The translations under genes were made by a program, and so were the position numbers. Of a DNA stretch of 64,000 bases, positions 1,282 through 39,214 are shown in pieces. This DNA comes from Candidatus Minusculum obligatum (GTDB lineage: Bacteria; Patescibacteriota; Minisyncoccia; Phycocordibacterales; Phycocordibacteraceae), in assembly GCA_002331145.1 (NCBI GenBank), contig DCYT01000001.1:223697-287696 (forward strand). The letters are read 5' to 3'. The notes below the pieces were generated by a model. It was not told where the DNA came from, did no database searches, and saw only the letters and a list, made by a program, of their open reading frames with translations. Each line of letters begins with the position of its first letter. Positions within the stretch are counted from its first letter, which is position 1.

Positions 1282-1309
1282 TTGACAAGTTTTAGTAGTG
1301 TGGTAAGGT
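1282..1309 (+). promoter_or_regulatory. sigma70-like promoter of unit A (TTGACA, 16-nt spacer, TGGTAAGGT)
   Basis: Perfect -35 TTGACA at 1282-1287 and TGgTAAGGT at 1301-1309, directly followed by a GC-rich hairpin. Confidence 0.5.
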
Positions 1310-1317
1310 GCTGTGGT

Positions 1318-1680
1318 CGGGACGGCGACCAAGGACTTAAGCGAAAGCTTCTCCTTGGTAGGCCGTCGACGTGAACCTTAAGAAATCAACCTGTCGCCAA
1401 CACATGGAGATCATTATGATCCATTCCATTCGGGGTTCCCCGAGCAATGCTCGCTTTTAATCCCGCCGAAATGACACCGATCTTGATCGACCTGGGCCGC
1501 CGCGCGGCCGCCGGCACCTGACTCGCGCTGGATGCGCAGAAAGGAAAACGTCATGAGGCCGTGATGGCCGAGGATTCAACCTTTTATAGTTGTAGATAGA
1601 TAAAATTTCGGGGCTGCTATAGCTAATCAAAGCTTTGCAGCCCCACTCACAATACTAGTCAATAAGACTAGTATTTTTAA
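1318..1680 (+). ncRNA. GC-rich structured transcript of unknown class (unit A); no convincing ORF
   Basis: About 360 nt between promoter and intrinsic terminator. GC is far above the genome background. 5' hairpin 1321-1367 with a GAAA tetraloop and internal loops, and a second hairpin GGGGCUGC...GCAGCCCC at 1602-1640. Only unconvincing short ORFs without SD. Does not match RNase P, tmRNA or 5S signatures I checked. Confidence 0.3.
1652..1680 (+). terminator. rho-independent terminator (ATACTAGTC-AATAA-GACTAGTAT + T-tract)
   Basis: 9-bp perfect stem, 5-nt loop, followed by TTTTTAA. Confidence 0.6.
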
Positions 1681-1694
1681 TATCAGACAACTTG

Positions 1695-1726
1695 TTGACA
1701 ACTTCATAACATTCTCGCAATAATAG
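1695..1726 (+). promoter_or_regulatory. sigma70-like promoter of unit B (TTGACA-N17/18-CAATAAT)
   Basis: TTGACA at 1695-1700 and A/T-rich -10 (CAATAAT) at 1718-1724. Downstream 5' hairpin ACCUUGCGUA-UUG-UACGCAAGGU. Confidence 0.5.
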
Positions 1727-1776
1727 ACGAGTTGACCTTGCGTATTGTACGCAAGGTAAATTGGAAGGATCAACAA

Positions 1777-1881
1777 ATGTTGAAACTTACCATCCGTTCC
1801 ACGCACGATCCGGGCTGCCGCCGTAGCGCCACCCTGATCGAAGTGGATCAATGCGAGACCATCGCCAACGTCGCTCGATGA
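1777..1881 (+). CDS. 34-aa sORF (unit B), MLKLTIRSTHDPGCRRSATLIEVDQCETIANVAR
   Basis: SD GGAAGGA 7 nt upstream of ATG. GC-rich. Own promoter and terminator. Same length and architecture as the unit C sORF. Coding status uncertain; could be a structured RNA instead. Confidence 0.3.
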   Translation: MLKLTIRSTHDPGCRRSATLIEVDQCETIANVAR

Positions 1882-1927
1882 ACGATCGCCCACAAGGAGG
1901 GAAACATGGATCCGCCCGAGTATTACC

Positions 1928-1962
1928 GCCCACAGCACTGCTGTGGGCTTTCTTTTTGTTTT
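1928..1962 (+). terminator. rho-independent terminator (GCCCACAGC-ACU-GCUGUGGGC + U-tract)
   Basis: 9-bp GC-rich stem followed by TTTCTTTTTGTTTT. Confidence 0.7.
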
Positions 1963-2048
1963 CCTACATAAATTCTTGACCTCAAAGTAATTAATGCTAC
2001 GTTTTAAGTACTTGCTTCATTCCGAAGTAGGTTGAACGGAGGTCTATC

Positions 2049-2153
2049 ATGACCCATCACACCAGCTTTGCTGTCAACACGGAGCGAATCAACGCTGCTA
2101 CTGTTGACTACACGCTCGCTGTTGAAACCGGCCGGACCGCCACGCACGGATAG
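2049..2153 (+). CDS. 34-aa sORF (unit C), MTHHTSFAVNTERINAATVDYTLAVETGRTATHG
   Basis: SD GGAGG 6 nt upstream of ATG. GC-rich. Preceded by TTGACC at 1975 and followed by a weak terminator. Weak similarity to the unit B peptide (A-T-x7-E-T). Confidence 0.3.
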   Translation: MTHHTSFAVNTERINAATVDYTLAVETGRTATHG

Positions 2154-2220
2154 TCCAGGTCGCCGTCGAATACTCTAAACCTGTGTGGGGAGCCCCAGTG
2201 CTCCTCATGCAGACACAGCT

Positions 2221-2246
2221 CACAGTTTAACTGTGGGTTTTTCTTT
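2221..2246 (+). terminator. weak intrinsic terminator (CACAG-UUUAA-CUGUG + GGUUUUUCUUU)
   Basis: Short 5-bp stem with a T-rich tail. Ends unit C before rpsA. Confidence 0.35.
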
Positions 2247-2372
2247 ACTTTTCATACAAAAATAGCTATATTTCCATGACTTCAGTACGGAGTAATTAAT
2301 TGACGTATGTAGCTAACACTGCGCTCTATAAAGCAGTACTAGATACGAAACTCCCGAACAAGACAATTACAT

Positions 2373-3449
2373 ATGTTTGGAACAAAAGAGATGGAACATC
2401 CTCTGAATCATTTGATTGAGGAGGCACCAGAGCCACCACAGCCAGGAGATACTGTAGAAGGAGAAATTGTAGCGATTGACCGTGGTCGTGTATACGTAGA
2501 CCTTCCCCCATTTGGGACAGGTATTATCTATGGACGTGAGTACCTAAGTGCTTCTGATATTCTTCGAAAGAGCAATATTGGAGATGCTATTTCTGCAAAG
2601 GTTGTAGATAGCTCAGGACTTGATGGATACATCGAGCTTTCACTTAAGGAAGCACGCCAAGCTGCTATCTGGGGAGAGGCAGAACTTGCTATCGCAGGAG
2701 GTACTACCTACAACATCAATGTTGAGGATGCGAATAAGGGAGGACTTATTCTTAAGTGGCAAGGAATCGATGGATTCCTTCCAGCTTCACAGCTGCGAAG
2801 CGAACACTACCCTCGAGTACAAGATGGAGACAAGGATGAAATTCTTGGAGAACTTAAGAAGTTTATCGGTACTCCCCTTGCTGTTCGAATCATCACAGCA
2901 GATCCAAAGGAAGGAAAGCTTATCTTTACTGAGAAATCTCACGAAGAGGAAGAGGCAAAGACAGATGCAGTTGATAAGTACTCTGTAGGAGATGTTGTAG
3001 AAGGAACCGTAACAGGAGGTGTTGAGTTTGGTCTCTTTGTTGAGATTGAGCAGGGTCTTGAGGGACTTGTGCACATCTCAGAGATCGACTGGGCTCTTGT
3101 TGAGGACCCAGCAGCTCTCTACCCTGTTGGAACAGCAGTTAAAGTTAAGGTTATTGATGTGAAGGACGGAAAGGTTTCTCTTTCAATCAAGGCTCTTAAG
3201 GAGAACCCTTGGGATACTGCAGCAAAGAAGTACAAGAAGGACACTGAGGTTACTGGAGTTGTTATCAAGTACAACAAGCATGGAGCTCTTGCCTCTATTG
3301 AGGAAGGAGTTGCAGGACTTGTGCATGTTTCAGAATTTGAAAGCATGGCAGATCTTCGAGAGAAACTTGAGCTTGGAAAGACATACCCATTCACCATTAC
3401 TCTCTTTGAAGCAAAGGAGCAGCGCATGACGCTCTCATACAAAGGATAA
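2373..3449 (+). CDS. rpsA: 30S ribosomal protein S1 (short four-S1-domain form)
   Basis: 358 aa with repeated S1 RNA-binding domain signatures (GxxVxGxV...G.GGLLH.SE..W). Followed by a strong terminator. Confidence 0.8.
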   Translation: MFGTKEMEHPLNHLIEEAPEPPQPGDTVEGEIVAIDRGRVYVDLPPFGTGIIYGREYLSASDILRKSNIGDAISAKVVDSSGLDGYIELSLKEARQAAIWGEAELAIAGGTTYNINVEDANKGGLILKWQGIDGFLPASQLRSEHYPRVQDGDKDEILGELKKFIGTPLAVRIITADPKEGKLIFTEKSHEEEEAKTDAVDKYSVGDVVEGTVTGGVEFGLFVEIEQGLEGLVHISEIDWALVEDPAALYPVGTAVKVKVIDVKDGKVSLSIKALKENPWDTAAKKYKKDTEVTGVVIKYNKHGALASIEEGVAGLVHVSEFESMADLREKLELGKTYPFTITLFEAKEQRMTLSYKG

Positions 3450-3497: not shown

Positions 3498-3559
3498 GAC
3501 TTTTCTCTATTTGAGGAGTACCTTCGATATTAGAAATGTACTTAGCCAGGGAGGAAATA

Positions 3560-3727
3560 ATGGCACAAGAAACTATTGGTGAGGGCGGAAGCATTGATGC
3601 AAACGGCAACTTTGTTCCTGCAAAAGGCGGAAGTCCGATTGTACCATTCGTGATTGACATCGTGGTTTTCGTCGGAATTGTCTGGGCACTCCTAAGTGGA
3701 ATCTCCTGGATTGTAAACGCCCTCTAG
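3560..3727 (+). CDS. small membrane protein (55 aa, C-terminal TM helix)
   Basis: SD GGGAGG 5 nt upstream of ATG at 3560. Hydrophobic C-terminus (IVPFVIDIVVFVGIVWALLSGI). Terminator-like hairpin follows. Confidence 0.45.
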   Translation: MAQETIGEGGSIDANGNFVPAKGGSPIVPFVIDIVVFVGIVWALLSGISWIVNAL

Positions 3728-3745: not shown

Positions 3746-3772
3746 ACGGCTCACCTGTGTGAGCCGTTTCTA
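3746..3772 (+). terminator. intrinsic terminator-like hairpin (ACGGCUCAC-CUGU-GUGAGCCGU UUC)
   Basis: 9-bp stem with a weak U-tail. Confidence 0.45.
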
Positions 3773-3806
3773 CTGCTATACTCTTATGCAGAAAGGAGGT
3801 AAGGAA

Positions 3807-3926
3807 ATGATACACCCTGATGATTTCCCTCCACGTGAACGCAGACAAGGACATAAATTCCTTTGGGGACTTTTGCTCGTTGGGGCAGTTCTTGCAGTTA
3901 CTGCTATTCGATGCACCGGTGCTTAG
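3807..3926 (+). CDS. small membrane peptide (39 aa)
   Basis: Strong SD AAAGGAGGT upstream of ATG at 3807. Hydrophobic core FLWGLLLVGAVLAVTAI. 3' end overlaps the pth stop on the opposite strand. Confidence 0.4.
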   Translation: MIHPDDFPPRERRQGHKFLWGLLLVGAVLAVTAIRCTGA

Positions 3927-31078: not shown

Positions 31079-31087
31079 CATTTTTAT

Positions 31088-31408
31088 ATCGTGGCTATAA
31101 GCCGGATTCTGTAATAAGAGTTTACACTCTTACCGACAGTTATTTACCTTGCCTTTATGTTGCCATAAAGATCTTTGCGGCACTCTCCATAAAATGGAGT
31201 ACGGCCTTGCACGTAGGTAGGAATTTTGCCGTTTCACCCATATGTCTCCACATGATTATTCCCGAGGGAACCCATTGCATCTCTGCGCTGGCGTCACTGC
31301 TCGCATCCCTAAGATTGCTCTCGACGGGCGTTACCCGCTACCCTGCTACAGAACAAGTCTGTACGTGTCCGGACTTTCCTCACAAAAGCGCAACTGTCCA
31401 CCACGACA
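31088..31408 (-). ncRNA. rnpB: RNase P RNA (bacterial type A-like, reduced)
   Basis: On the minus strand: P4 5' strand GAGGAAAGUCCGG (31369-31381), CAGGGUAGCGGGUAACGCCCG (P10/11/12 region), AGAGCAA, GGGUGAAA, AAGGCCGUAC (P15-like), P4 3' strand ACAGAAUCCGGCUUAUA (31096-31112). P1 pairing GUCGUGGU/GCCACGAU. About 320 nt. GC-rich against an AT-rich genome. Confidence 0.85.
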
Positions 31409-31414
31409 AAAAAG

Positions 31415-37324: not shown

Positions 37325-39214
37325 ATGGAACACAAAAGACCAGGTCCAGGGAAAAAGCCCGGACCACACAAGCGAGGGCCAGGAGGACCAAGGAAACCTC
37401 GACCAAAAATTCACGGAGGGCCATCAACAGCCCCAGGTGGAAACAGAACGGTTCGCAGCAAGCGAAACGCTCGTATGGAGATGCGTCGAGACGCACCAAT
37501 TATTGCTCGTCGTGAAGATGAGTACTATCCAGAAGCTCCAGATAAAGATACAGCTCGAGTTATACCTCTTGGAGGAGTTGAGGAGGTGGGACGAAACTGT
37601 ACTGCTATTGATGTAAATGGAGACATCTTTATTTTGGATGTTGGATTCCAGTTCGTATCAGAAGAGCATGCTCCTGGAATTGACTATGTTCTTCCAAATA
37701 CAAAGTACTTGGAGAAAAACGTAGATCGAATCAGAGGTGCACTTATCACTCACGGTCACCTTGACCACATTGGAGGAGTTCCCTTCATGATGGGACGTAT
37801 TGGAAACCCAACAATCTACACACAGAATCTAACATCTGTGATGATTAAGAAGCGACAGGAAGAATATCCTGATGCACCAAAGCTTGATATTCAGGAAGTG
37901 AAGGTTGGAGATCGAATCAAAATTGGAAACACTTTTGTAAAGTTCTTCCCCGTAACTCACTCTATTCCTGATTCAATGGGAGTATCAATTGAATCTCCAC
38001 ACGGAAACCTGGTTATCTCAGGAGACCTTAAGCTTGACCATGTTGATGGAAAGCCAGCTCCTATTGAGGAGAAAACATGGGGAGAGCTTGGAAAAGACAA
38101 GAACATCTTCTTCATGGGAGATTCAACAAACGCTGAGCGTGATGGATTCTCAATGCCTGAAACAAAGGTACACCAGACTATTGAAGACATCATCAAGACA
38201 GTAAAAGGACGTCTTATTATTGGAACCTTTGCCTCACAGTTTGAGCGAATGGTGAAGATTCTTGAAATGTCTGAGAAGCTTGGAAAGAAAGTGGTTCTTG
38301 AAGGACGAAGTATCAAAACAAACGTGGAGATCGCAAACCATGTGAATCTTCTAAACATTGGAAAGGATGTGATTATTCCTTCAGGAGATATTGATAAGTA
38401 TCCACCAGACAAGATCATTATCATTGCCACAGGAGCTCAGGGAGAGAAGTTTGCTGCTCTTATGCGCATCGCAACTGGTAAGCACAAGTTCGTAAAACTT
38501 ACTCCTCGAGACACTATTGTTTTCTCATCTTCTGTTATTCCAGGAAACGAAGTTTCTGTTCAGAAGCTGAAGGACAATCTATACAGGCATGATATTAACC
38601 TTCTTCACTACCGAACAAGTGATGTGCACTCAACAGGGCACGGAAATACTGGAGAGCTTGTATGGATCAACCAGCAAGTTCACCCTACATTCTTTATGCC
38701 AGGGTACGGATATCACACAATGCTTAGGCTTCATGCCCGCGCTGTTGAGCAATCTGGATTCCCCAAGGAGAACATCATCATTCCAGATAATGGAACAGTG
38801 ATTGATATTATCAAGGGAGAAAAGCTTCACATCCACAAGCAAAAGGTACCTGCTGCCCCACTTCTTGTTGATGGAATCGGAATTGGAGATATGCAGGAAG
38901 TTGTTATCCGAGATCGGCAGATGCTTTCAAAGGATGGAATCTTCGTGATCATTGCAACTGTGCAATTGAAGACCGGAAAGCTTCGAAAGTCTCCTGACAT
39001 TATTTCTCGAGGATTTGTATACATTCGAGAAAACCAGGAGCTCTTCCAGCATGCTCGCATCCTTATCAAGAAGAGTGTTGAGGACACTACACAAGGCATG
39101 CATCCTATCGACCTAGATATTGTGAAGAAGGAACTAACCAATACACTTGAAACGTACCTCTTCCAAAAGACCAACAAAACACCAATTGTTATACCTGTAC
39201 TGATCGGAGTATAA
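37325..39214 (+). CDS. rnj: ribonuclease J (beta-CASP MBL) with basic low-complexity N-terminal extension
   Basis: HGHLDHIGG metallo-beta-lactamase motif, beta-CASP region, and C-terminal domain. About 80-aa Pro/Gly/Lys/Arg-rich N-terminus. Confidence 0.85.
   Translation: MEHKRPGPGKKPGPHKRGPGGPRKPRPKIHGGPSTAPGGNRTVRSKRNARMEMRRDAPIIARREDEYYPEAPDKDTARVIPLGGVEEVGRNCTAIDVNGDIFILDVGFQFVSEEHAPGIDYVLPNTKYLEKNVDRIRGALITHGHLDHIGGVPFMMGRIGNPTIYTQNLTSVMIKKRQEEYPDAPKLDIQEVKVGDRIKIGNTFVKFFPVTHSIPDSMGVSIESPHGNLVISGDLKLDHVDGKPAPIEEKTWGELGKDKNIFFMGDSTNAERDGFSMPETKVHQTIEDIIKTVKGRLIIGTFASQFERMVKILEMSEKLGKKVVLEGRSIKTNVEIANHVNLLNIGKDVIIPSGDIDKYPPDKIIIIATGAQGEKFAALMRIATGKHKFVKLTPRDTIVFSSSVIPGNEVSVQKLKDNLYRHDINLLHYRTSDVHSTGHGNTGELVWINQQVHPTFFMPGYGYHTMLRLHARAVEQSGFPKENIIIPDNGTVIDIIKGEKLHIHKQKVPAAPLLVDGIGIGDMQEVVIRDRQMLSKDGIFVIIATVQLKTGKLRKSPDIISRGFVYIRENQELFQHARILIKKSVEDTTQGMHPIDLDIVKKELTNTLETYLFQKTNKTPIVIPVLIGV

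Follow-up and report, generated by a model that had tools for sequence, protein, structure and literature searches.

Ribosome arrest peptides are familiar from two settings, the C-terminal motifs of proteins that monitor secretion and the leaders of operons for resistance or catabolism. Two other kinds of system belong beside them, namely the 5' mRNA stabilisers of Gram-positive bacteria, where 5'-terminal stem-loops, STAB-SD (Shine-Dalgarno, SD) elements or a ribosome stalled on the ermC leader protect long protein-coding messages, and the hypervariable small-peptide loci, such as pheromone genes and the precursor families of ribosomally synthesised and post-translationally modified peptides (RiPPs), for example the prochlorosins. 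Among the arrest peptides themselves, the SecM protein of Mannheimia succiniciproducens (MsSecM) carries eight residues, HAPIRGSP, that are sufficient for ribosome arrest (PMC12526060), and the RQH family is defined by the RAPP-like motifs RGSP, RAPP, RGPP, RAGP, RAPG, HAPP, HGPP, QAPP, TGPP, RSPP and RDGP (PMC10987492). In this article, I will compare with these systems a GC-rich island, at positions 1282-2248, that lies between the genes for an MBL-fold hydrolase and ribosomal protein S1 (rpsA) in a 64,000-nucleotide stretch of the genome of Candidatus Minusculum obligatum (contig DCYT01000001.1, positions 223,697 to 287,696; hereafter the window, whose own numbering is used throughout).

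The explanation that I prefer, on which belief and doubt are for me evenly balanced, is that the island consists of three autonomous mini-genes in tandem, each for a small open reading frame (sORF), i.e. translated leader-type cassettes, with an N-terminal arrest motif in the first of them, unit A. That these are translated sORF cassettes and not classical non-coding RNAs (ncRNAs) can be said with moderate to good confidence; that ribosome arrest may be the mechanism, with modest confidence. All three units lie on the plus strand, from promoter to terminator at 1282-1680 (A), 1695-1958 (B) and 1975-2248 (C), and in every one the order is a sigma-70-type promoter, a 5'-terminal stem-loop, an SD, a short GC-rich ORF (14, 34 and 34 codons in A, B and C), GC-rich hairpins and an intrinsic terminator, with the SD-AUG partly hidden within a small hairpin and with an extra SD-AUG mini-ORF in A and B. 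An earlier note on this DNA had described three such same-strand units in a GC-rich island within low-GC surroundings, and this observation is confirmed: all of the elements were located by scanning, reading and folding, and GC maxima of 0.60-0.64 stand against 42.4% for the whole window. In segments of 120 nt with GC of at least 0.56, the island forms three blocks, at 1391-1611 (maximum 0.64), 1771-1951 (0.62) and 2031-2241 (0.60), and these are the highest unexplained GC peaks in the 64 kb. On the plus strand there are terminator-like hairpins at 1651-1675, 1928-1948 and 2217-2239, and each unit folds more stably than every one of its dinucleotide shuffles (z = -7.2 for A, -5.1 for B and -4.6 for C). 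GC at third codon positions (GC3) is 0.57-0.71 in the sORFs of the window and up to 0.9 in those of clade relatives, against 0.31-0.42 in host genes.

The evidence that carries the preferred explanation comes from unit A, a homolog of which is present in 8 of the 9 genomes of the window's low-GC marine clade (rpsA 83-98% identical). Its 14-codon sORF-A1, MIHSIRGSPSNARF, runs from ATG 1416 to TAA 1460 behind an SD (SD1, GGAG, 1406-1409), and its codons 5-9 (1428-1442) encode IRGSP. The earlier note was right about the long 5' hairpin with a GAAA loop (1321-1367, seen in both minimum-free-energy and centroid folds) but not in stating that unit A has no credible ORF, for this SD-led frame is conserved. 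The alleles of L009 (MTRSIRGSPSNARS), L108 (MSRSIRGSPSALRA) and L004 (MSRSIRGSPSTVAHEITKRTALHHTIDLRLVAA; the loci of relatives are given L numbers) end at a stop codon, as does that of the window, those of L011 (MTNRHIRGSTVNG) and L077 (MHIRGSPAFSAG; rpsA 70% identical) continue, and that of L091 (VISCRGSPASAT) is listed in part. Across these seven loci, the Arg is encoded by CGG, CGA or CGC, the Gly by GGT, GGG or GGA and the Ser by TCC, TCT or TCG, so that each of the three codons is fixed at its first two positions (six in all) and takes three states at its third; since only the third positions vary, R-G-S is constrained at the level of the peptide, and the first nine codons of sORF-A1 are under peptide-level purifying selection. 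The hairpin CGGGGTTCCCCG was considered as the cause of this conservation and rejected, being broken by the third-position changes. The Pro of IRGSP is kept in 6 of the 7 loci, and past it sequence, reading frame and ORF length (14-42 codons) are all variable; a second such pair, L035 and L159 (MKIPTQGSPA...), likewise has a conserved start and a divergent remainder. With conservation limited to some 5-10 N-terminal codons, the peptides resemble leaders or arrest peptides that act in cis more than they do stable small proteins.

The elements upstream of sORF-A1 are conserved as well. The unit A promoter, read from the sequence at 1282-1309, has a -35 element TTGACA (1282-1287), a 16-nt spacer and an extended -10 element TGgTAAGGT (1301-1309), and its TTGACAA and GT.GGTA...T are invariant or nearly so across the 8-9 aligned homologs. 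A comparison of the 5' hairpin in the window and in L009 gives one compensatory change, from G:C to A:U (AAGGA/TCCTT to AAGAA/TTCTT), and two further differences, one in a loop and one in a bulge. Downstream, by contrast with these parts, the GC-rich body of unit A (1461-1540; local hairpins, GC up to 0.64) is hypervariable. L004 and L108 are 95.9% identical over 7.1 kb, and this identity falls to 46-69%, with many indels, between sORF codon 10 and the second SD, the lowest value in the region; the window and L009 are ~85% identical up to 1480 and then continue into unrelated 3' modules; and mosaic recombination is indicated by the similarity of part of the L108 allele to that of L009. Neutral relics are expected to lose GC faster than coding third positions, and the GC excess of the island must therefore be maintained, by one of three candidates that are not separable here: selection for stable structure, rare-codon usage, or GC-biased gene conversion at a recombination hotspot. 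A diversity-generating retroelement was rejected as the source of variation in this segment, in view of the many indels between alleles and the lack of a reverse transcriptase gene nearby.

IRGSP is identical to the core of the MsSecM motif HAPIRGSP, and it fits the R-x-x-P pattern of arrest motifs, in which the Arg is essential and the Pro sits in the A site. Moreover, unit A is not the only cassette in this spacer with such a motif, since the sORFs of relatives carry HAPP (L083, L055), HGPP (L145), TGPP (L014, L074, L151), RGPP (L035) and both RAPP and RSPP (L122) near their N-termini, and the related motifs HSPP, GSPP, QGSP and NGPP are also found in spacer sORFs. Of 240 SD-led plus-strand sORFs, 16 have a published motif among their first 18 residues, compared with 11 of the 1720 ORFs that served as controls (odds ratio 11, p = 6e-9), and the enrichment persists when the RGSP homologs are left out (10 of 234, p = 5e-5). 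The position of these motifs within the sORFs is skewed as well, 16 lying in the first 18 residues against 1 further along, with the last Pro of the motif at codons 6-16 (median 9). The likeness to arrest peptides is thus drawn from sequence and literature, and from it I infer the stalling itself.

How general are such cassettes? The comparison set consists of 172 loci retrieved via rpsA, of which 122 non-redundant spacers were used for spacer counts; the protein sequence of rpsA assigns the window itself to the Patescibacteria/Paceibacteria. The gene order, with the MBL-fold gene on the minus and rpsA on the plus strand, is kept in relatives at 70-98% rpsA identity (Patescibacteria/Paceibacteria), and the spacer between the two genes ranges from 134 to 3037 nt (median 546). 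Terminator-like hairpins number 96 on the strand of rpsA and 19 on the other, promoter-like sites (TTGACN...T[AG]nnnT) number 63 and 7, and the spacers carry SD-led ORFs of ~14-140 codons, a signal peptide or transmembrane segments being encoded in some; GC3 is the highest of the three codon positions in 77 of 102 SD-led plus-strand ORFs, compared with ~48% in other ORF classes. It is this strand bias, together with the SD-led, GC3-high ORFs, that marks the spacer as a class-wide hotspot for co-oriented mini transcription units, and the units of the window are part of a large and rapidly diversifying population of co-oriented sORF cassettes in this spacer throughout the Paceibacteria. The idea of a family of tiny peptides, one of several offered in the earlier note, has accordingly become the better supported alternative, through the synonymous R-G-S pattern in unit A, the identical start and nearly equal length of the unit B sORF in one relative and the generality of SD-led sORFs in the spacers, but with conservation of so few N-terminal codons the peptides look leader-like and not like stable small proteins.

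Should sORF-A1 indeed be a cis-acting leader, its nascent chain ...SIRGS would halt the ribosome at codons 8/9 while Pro-tRNA occupies the A site, as in MsSecM and other RAPP-like peptides, and this ribosome, parked ~120 nt from the 5' end, could together with the 5' hairpin protect or gate the GC-rich RNA downstream, with its second SD, mini-ORF and terminator. One option is shielding from 5'-end-dependent decay by the combination of 5' hairpin, strong SD and parked ribosome, and an RNase J is encoded in the window; another is control of termination or of read-through toward rpsA. A model in which the stall opens the second SD (SD2) found no support: in constrained partition-function folding, which gives a thermodynamic prediction only and is a weak test, the unpaired probability of SD2-AUG2 was unchanged by the ribosome footprint in 6 homologs (e.g. 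0.55 to 0.53, 0.36 to 0.34).

That result is one of several that weigh against stalling or against the cassettes as a whole. The unit A transcript has no downstream protein gene, unlike every characterised arrest peptide, and sORF-A1 is followed only by a 3-codon mini-ORF and two terminator hairpins and then by units B and C and rpsA; neither secA, secDF, yidC nor another gene to be controlled lies on the same mRNA. The nascent chain would be just 8 residues long at the putative stall, and the localisation signal with a spacer of >30 residues, through which a pulling force can relieve the arrest in such peptides, is absent, the motif ending at codon 9 and no hydrophobic segment being present. 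In L011 the motif reads IRGST, losing the A-site Pro. Chance alone also makes RGSP common where frames are rich in GC (93 occurrences in 2.0 M six-frame residues), and the RGSP-bearing sORFs represent one or two independent lineages only. The unit B sORF and its L009 homolog differ by 21 nonsynonymous and 3 synonymous codon changes, spread evenly over the codon positions (13/16/14), while the unit C sORF has neither a proline nor an arrest-like motif, and a homolog of it was not found in the 172 loci. GC3 of 0.65-0.9 in a genome of ~0.35 GC3 could also reflect selection at the RNA level. Lastly, L010 (rpsA 91% identical) has an island-free spacer of 202 nt and rpsA is served by a conserved promoter and leader of its own, which weighs against an essential role.

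It is now necessary to consider what else the island could be, starting with structured RNAs. The earlier note had suggested signal recognition particle (SRP) RNA, 6S RNA or a novel class, and named a match in Rfam to a known RNA as the result that would dispose of its reading of the units. Rfam at gathering thresholds found only rnpB and tRNAs in the whole window; on 1150-2450, at E <= 10, it found two chance microRNA matches (E ~8-9) and no SRP RNA, 6S RNA, tmRNA or riboswitch; and on the seven homologous loci nothing relevant appeared at E <= 1. The tmRNA suggested by the ~360-nt size and the Ala-rich peptide ends was rejected, there being no tRNA-like domain and no ARAGORN match on the island. 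Known classes are therefore excluded as far as covariance models and ARAGORN reach, with the limit that RNase P RNA itself (31082-31409, minus strand) passes the gathering threshold of 100 bits with a score of 104.6, which places this lineage's structured RNAs near the detection limit of Rfam. Of the regulatory-RNA idea there remains the local structure, which is real in view of the compensatory change in the 5' hairpin, and a new class of structured ncRNAs, whose GC-rich bodies are functional and whose sORFs are incidental or secondary (as in dual-function small RNAs), would also account for the folding z-scores, for a high GC kept in a 42% GC genome with coding GC3 ~0.35, for a hairpin motif with a covarying stem pair in three loci (ATGAGG-hairpin-CGAGGATT, described below), and for a long, well-conserved non-coding 3' domain common to four relatives. 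I nevertheless regard this as quite unlikely: no Rfam family emerges even at permissive thresholds, conservation is lowest in the GC-rich body, which is full of indels, terminators and 5' hairpins contribute part of the z-scores, and the most conserved element varies only synonymously, CGG GGT TCC CCG against CGA GGG TCT CCG placing an A.C mismatch in the putative hairpin. Diffusible small peptides of pheromone, bacteriocin or RiPP kind, in which a conserved N-terminal leader for processing or export precedes a hypervariable C-terminal core that is the mature product, are unlikely too, if a little less so. They would fit the conserved N-terminus and hypervariable remainder, the tandem paralogs within a variable hotspot, the raised GC3 in the SD-defined frame and the larger ORFs in the same spacer of relatives, with their clear signal peptides and shared motifs (PDGDGIT); yet 3 of 6 unit A alleles end at 14 codons, leaving a "core" of 4-5 residues, a leader of hydrophobic or double-glycine type is lacking in the short peptides, maturation, transport and immunity genes are missing from the neighbourhood, so that there is no RiPP cluster, no precursor family is matched, and the indels in the variable segment are not in multiples of three.

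A third possibility is that the island does nothing, being recently acquired GC-rich DNA or the decaying remnants of cassettes from higher-GC Paceibacteria in a spacer that tolerates insertions. Presence/absence polymorphism (L010), extreme turnover and mosaicism and the orphan status of unit C are all compatible with this, as is the composition of cassettes in higher-GC relatives, which is near that of the host (GC3 0.75 against 0.68 for rpsA). A non-functional island is nonetheless improbable given that unit A occurs in all but one of the low-GC clade members with its promoter, 5' hairpin, SD and first nine codons conserved, that neutral DNA should have lost the GC excess faster than coding third positions, and that promoters and terminators show a strong strand bias over the 122 spacers. 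Phage or plasmid origin is unsupported as well, the island DNA having no match in phage and plasmid collections. Hardly credible at all is a conventional gene for a 103-aa minus-strand protein (1627-1938) in the middle of the island, although this is the only island gene of public gene callers, is called on Logan and JGI contigs and has an open antisense frame in L009. Among 5.8 billion proteins its only cluster is the same sequence, it matches no family, it has no SD and, at GC1/2/3 = 0.56/0.39/0.49, no GC3 excess, and antisense open frames are expected opposite GC-rich ORFs; since it lacks relatives, SD and GC3 excess and crosses the unit A terminator and the unit B promoter, 5' hairpin, SD and terminator, it is regarded as spurious. 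Two further candidates were discarded. Type I toxin-antitoxin loci do not fit, the peptides of A1, B and C being hydrophilic and without a transmembrane segment, and the only minus-strand promoter-like sites for an antisense RNA score 9/12, such sites being no more numerous in the region as a whole than in shuffles; and inspection for integron attC cassettes found neither a core-site consensus at the unit boundaries nor an integrase. For the island peptides and the larger spacer ORFs of relatives, Pfam, NCBIfam, PHROGs and PADLOC returned no family; phmmer of the island peptides against six-frame ORFs from all loci returned L009 relatives only, and a profile search of 5.8 billion proteins only the L077 sORF. 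A search of the literature found no papers on small proteins or structured RNAs of Patescibacteria.

Returning to the array of translated leader-type cassettes, the rest of unit A can be described as follows. After the hypervariable body there is an SD2-like run, AAAGGAAAAC, with the mini-ORF ATG AGG CCG TGA (1553-1564), the whole spanning 1541-1577 and including the ATGAGG-hairpin-CGAGGATT element, then a 3' hairpin, GGGGCTGC...GCAGCCCC (1610-1644, from folding), and the terminator hairpin with its T-run (1651-1675, ending at 1680; terminator scan and fold). The ATGAGG-hairpin element, with an SD-like run upstream, recurs in three different cassettes (the window, L007 at 4791 and L009/L092 at 3301), and its stems GGCC/GGCC, GGGCG/CGCCC and GGGC/GCCC amount to one covarying pair. 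By inspection it is not a kink-turn: tandem G.A pairs are possible in it, but the C-stem is not kept in the three instances. In four relatives, unit A extends into a ~300-nt, well-conserved, lower-GC 3' domain that is missing from the window (L004 2751-3035, L108 2586-2870, L009 2764-3050, L011 3094-3385). The domain opens with an SD-led, stop-terminated MFRFRLMVPYATACG region overlapping a 9-bp hairpin, closes at its own terminator and has no Rfam match.

Unit B starts at a promoter with 11 of 12 consensus matches (TTGACA-18-AATAAT, 1695-1724), followed by a 5' stem-loop found both as an inverted repeat, with 13-nt arms of 92% complementarity, and in the fold (1732-1760), and by the SD GGAAGGA (1763-1769), which precedes sORF-B, MLKLTIRSTHDPGCRRSATLIEVDQCETIANVAR (1777-1881; 34 codons; GC1/2/3 = 0.56/0.50/0.71). 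The sole homolog of sORF-B, in L009 (3153), has an identical start, 33 codons and the common core xHDPxxRRSA (HDP..RRSA), and HDP[TGA] is found again at codons 5-12 of sORFs in L043 and L074; outside this core there is no codon-level constraint, because the changes are evenly distributed over codon positions. Further along, a second SD, AAGGAGG (1895-1900, read from the sequence), precedes a second small ORF, MDPPEYYRPQHCCGLSFCFPT (1906-1971), which begins MDPP, a polyproline context, reads through the terminator and has no comparative support; the intrinsic terminator with its T-run occupies 1928-1958 (hairpin 1928-1948, a 9-bp stem with 7 GC pairs).

Unit C has a promoter weaker than those of A and B and under the scan threshold, which was read from the sequence at 1975-2002 (TTGACC 1975-1980, a 16-nt spacer, TGcTACGTT 1994-2002), a 5' stem-loop (2010-2032, from folding), the SD GGAGG (2038-2042) and sORF-C, MTHHTSFAVNTERINAATVDYTLAVETGRTATHG (2049-2153; 34 codons; GC1/2/3 = 0.56/0.53/0.65), and then a 3' hairpin beside an ATG in which GGGGAGC pairs with GCTCCTC (2181-2211, from folding) and a terminator with T-run (2217-2239, ending at 2248) that abuts the rpsA -35 element. 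The two 34-codon SD-led ORFs thus lie where the earlier note had placed them, and gene callers have never called either in public assemblies. The weak similarity that it saw between the two peptides has vanished, BLASTP giving no alignment at E <= 100; what B and C share instead is the terminator and flank, 71% identical over 49 nt. This flank resembles the rpsA promoter region, which suggests that cassettes were added by recombination at that junction. Units B and C are paralogous in architecture, with peptides barely or not constrained, and the support for unit C is its architecture only. In the related genomes to which the earlier note had looked for a check, then, homologs were recovered for unit A and for sORF-B but not for sORF-C, and the interpretation in that note is, overall, partly supported.

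The rpsA promoter (CTTTACT-17-TATATT, 2244-2272) is conserved in relatives, including the island-free L010. Some 70 nt upstream of the rpsA start, the 5' leader contains a conserved structured motif (2312-2352), which is found in ~60 distinct loci (e.g. L015, L016). Its outer stem has covarying flanks (AUCGG..CCGAU, GCGGG..CCCGC, GUCAG..CUGAU), and conserved strands GCUA(A/U)C(C/A)CU and AGUAC accompany an inner hairpin of variable length. With no Rfam match, this motif is a candidate S1 autoregulatory leader. In distant relatives, a family of leader-like sORFs lies near rpsA (L035 3143, L045 3197, L081 1444, L088 3076), sharing the N-terminus W(N/S)HR(M/I)TK with the rest divergent. Several of the larger cassette ORFs (L016 1253, L035 2919, L066 2855, L054 1569, L067 2892, L084 2126) have a (W)PDGDGIT-like motif in common, and a motif resembling D-x-G-R-G-A is found close to the C-terminus of several; these ORFs may form an unannotated family of secreted proteins.

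As for the wider surroundings, the island is bordered on the left by the divergent MBL-fold hydrolase gene (PF13483; 581-1222, minus strand) and on the right by rpsA (2373-3449, plus strand), and the neighbourhood also holds genes for a 121-aa protein, gyrA, pth and lepB. Outside the island, 120-nt segments with GC of at least 0.56 occur at rnpB (31.3 kb), a tRNA cluster and the N-terminus of RNase J (37.3 kb); the last of these, the only other peak that would be unexplained, is due to a Pro/Gly/Arg/Lys-rich N-terminal extension of ~55 residues in the 629-aa RNase J homolog (37325-37490). Downstream of rpsA are two small ORFs with hydrophobic segments, 3536-3727 (63 aa) and 3759-3926 (55 aa), each with an SD and a terminator, and the corresponding sets differ between relatives (66, 61 and 48 aa in L004; 100 and 70 aa in L005), so that the rpsA-pth spacer is also variable. 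No strain-level variants come from the Logan and JGI contigs, which match the window at 100% identity, and window-identical contigs occur in Tara Oceans assemblies.

One may go a step further and propose, as a doubtful possibility, that the Paceibacteria possess a new class of autonomous, orphan arrest mini-transcripts of 200-600 nt, with an N-terminal RAPP-like motif (such as IRGSP, HAPP, HSPP or TGPP) as the sole coding feature that they conserve and a hypervariable, recombining, GC-rich structured body, that sense translation status. Their signals might be EF-P, prolyl-tRNA or ribosome-targeting compounds, their output RNA stability or read-through into rpsA, and either biased gene conversion or selection for structure could sustain the GC excess of the hotspot. 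If this were true, nascent-peptide stalling would extend to codons 5-9 of free-standing mini-transcripts in a class-wide hotspot of ultra-small symbiotic bacteria. The locus also cautions that GC islands in reduced genomes are not necessarily structural RNAs and that standard gene callers can miss sORFs entirely while annotating a spurious antisense ORF in their place, and it can serve as a natural system in which to study how GC is maintained, and how sequence varies so extremely on a local scale, beside a core ribosomal gene.

Where does this leave the island among the known systems? With the hypervariable RiPP and pheromone loci it shares tandem paralogs, a conserved N-terminal segment, a hypervariable rest and allele mosaicism between strains, while it differs from them in having no modification or export genes, a conserved segment of ~10 residues and several alleles cut to 14 codons. 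Like the messages protected by Gram-positive 5' stabilisers, each unit combines a 5'-terminal hairpin with a strong SD, to which unit A adds a putative early stall, but the RNA to be protected here is a GC-rich non-coding or sORF region of 200-300 nt. The ErmCL, ErmBL and ErmDL leaders, the CatA86 and CmlA leaders and TnaC come close in form, with an SD-led ORF of 8-25 codons, a stall within ~10 codons, few conserved peptide residues and stable hairpins followed by a second SD and/or a terminator; they control an identifiable resistance or catabolic gene and their stalled ribosome demonstrably opens a hairpin, whereas the island has no regulated gene and constrained folding gives no SD2 opening. 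The SecM and RAPP-like peptides (E. coli SecM with RAGP, MsSecM with HAPIRGSP, ApdA/ApdP with RAPP, and the RQH family) are the nearest in motif: the IRGSP core is identical, the invariant Arg stands three residues before the Pro, conservation in unit A stops at the presumed A-site Pro, and the sister cassettes carry HAPP, HGPP, TGPP, RGPP, RSPP and RAPP. SecM-type members, however, are 60-200-aa secreted or membrane monitoring substrates with the motif near the C-terminus, encoded upstream of secA, secDF or yidC, and the island places its motif at codons 5-9 of a 14-42-codon ORF that has no localisation signal and meets a terminator before any protein gene. Among sORFs of the leader and arrest-peptide kind, those of this island are unusual in being orphans with an N-terminal motif, arranged as tandem units in a hypervariable, GC-rich hotspot beside rpsA.

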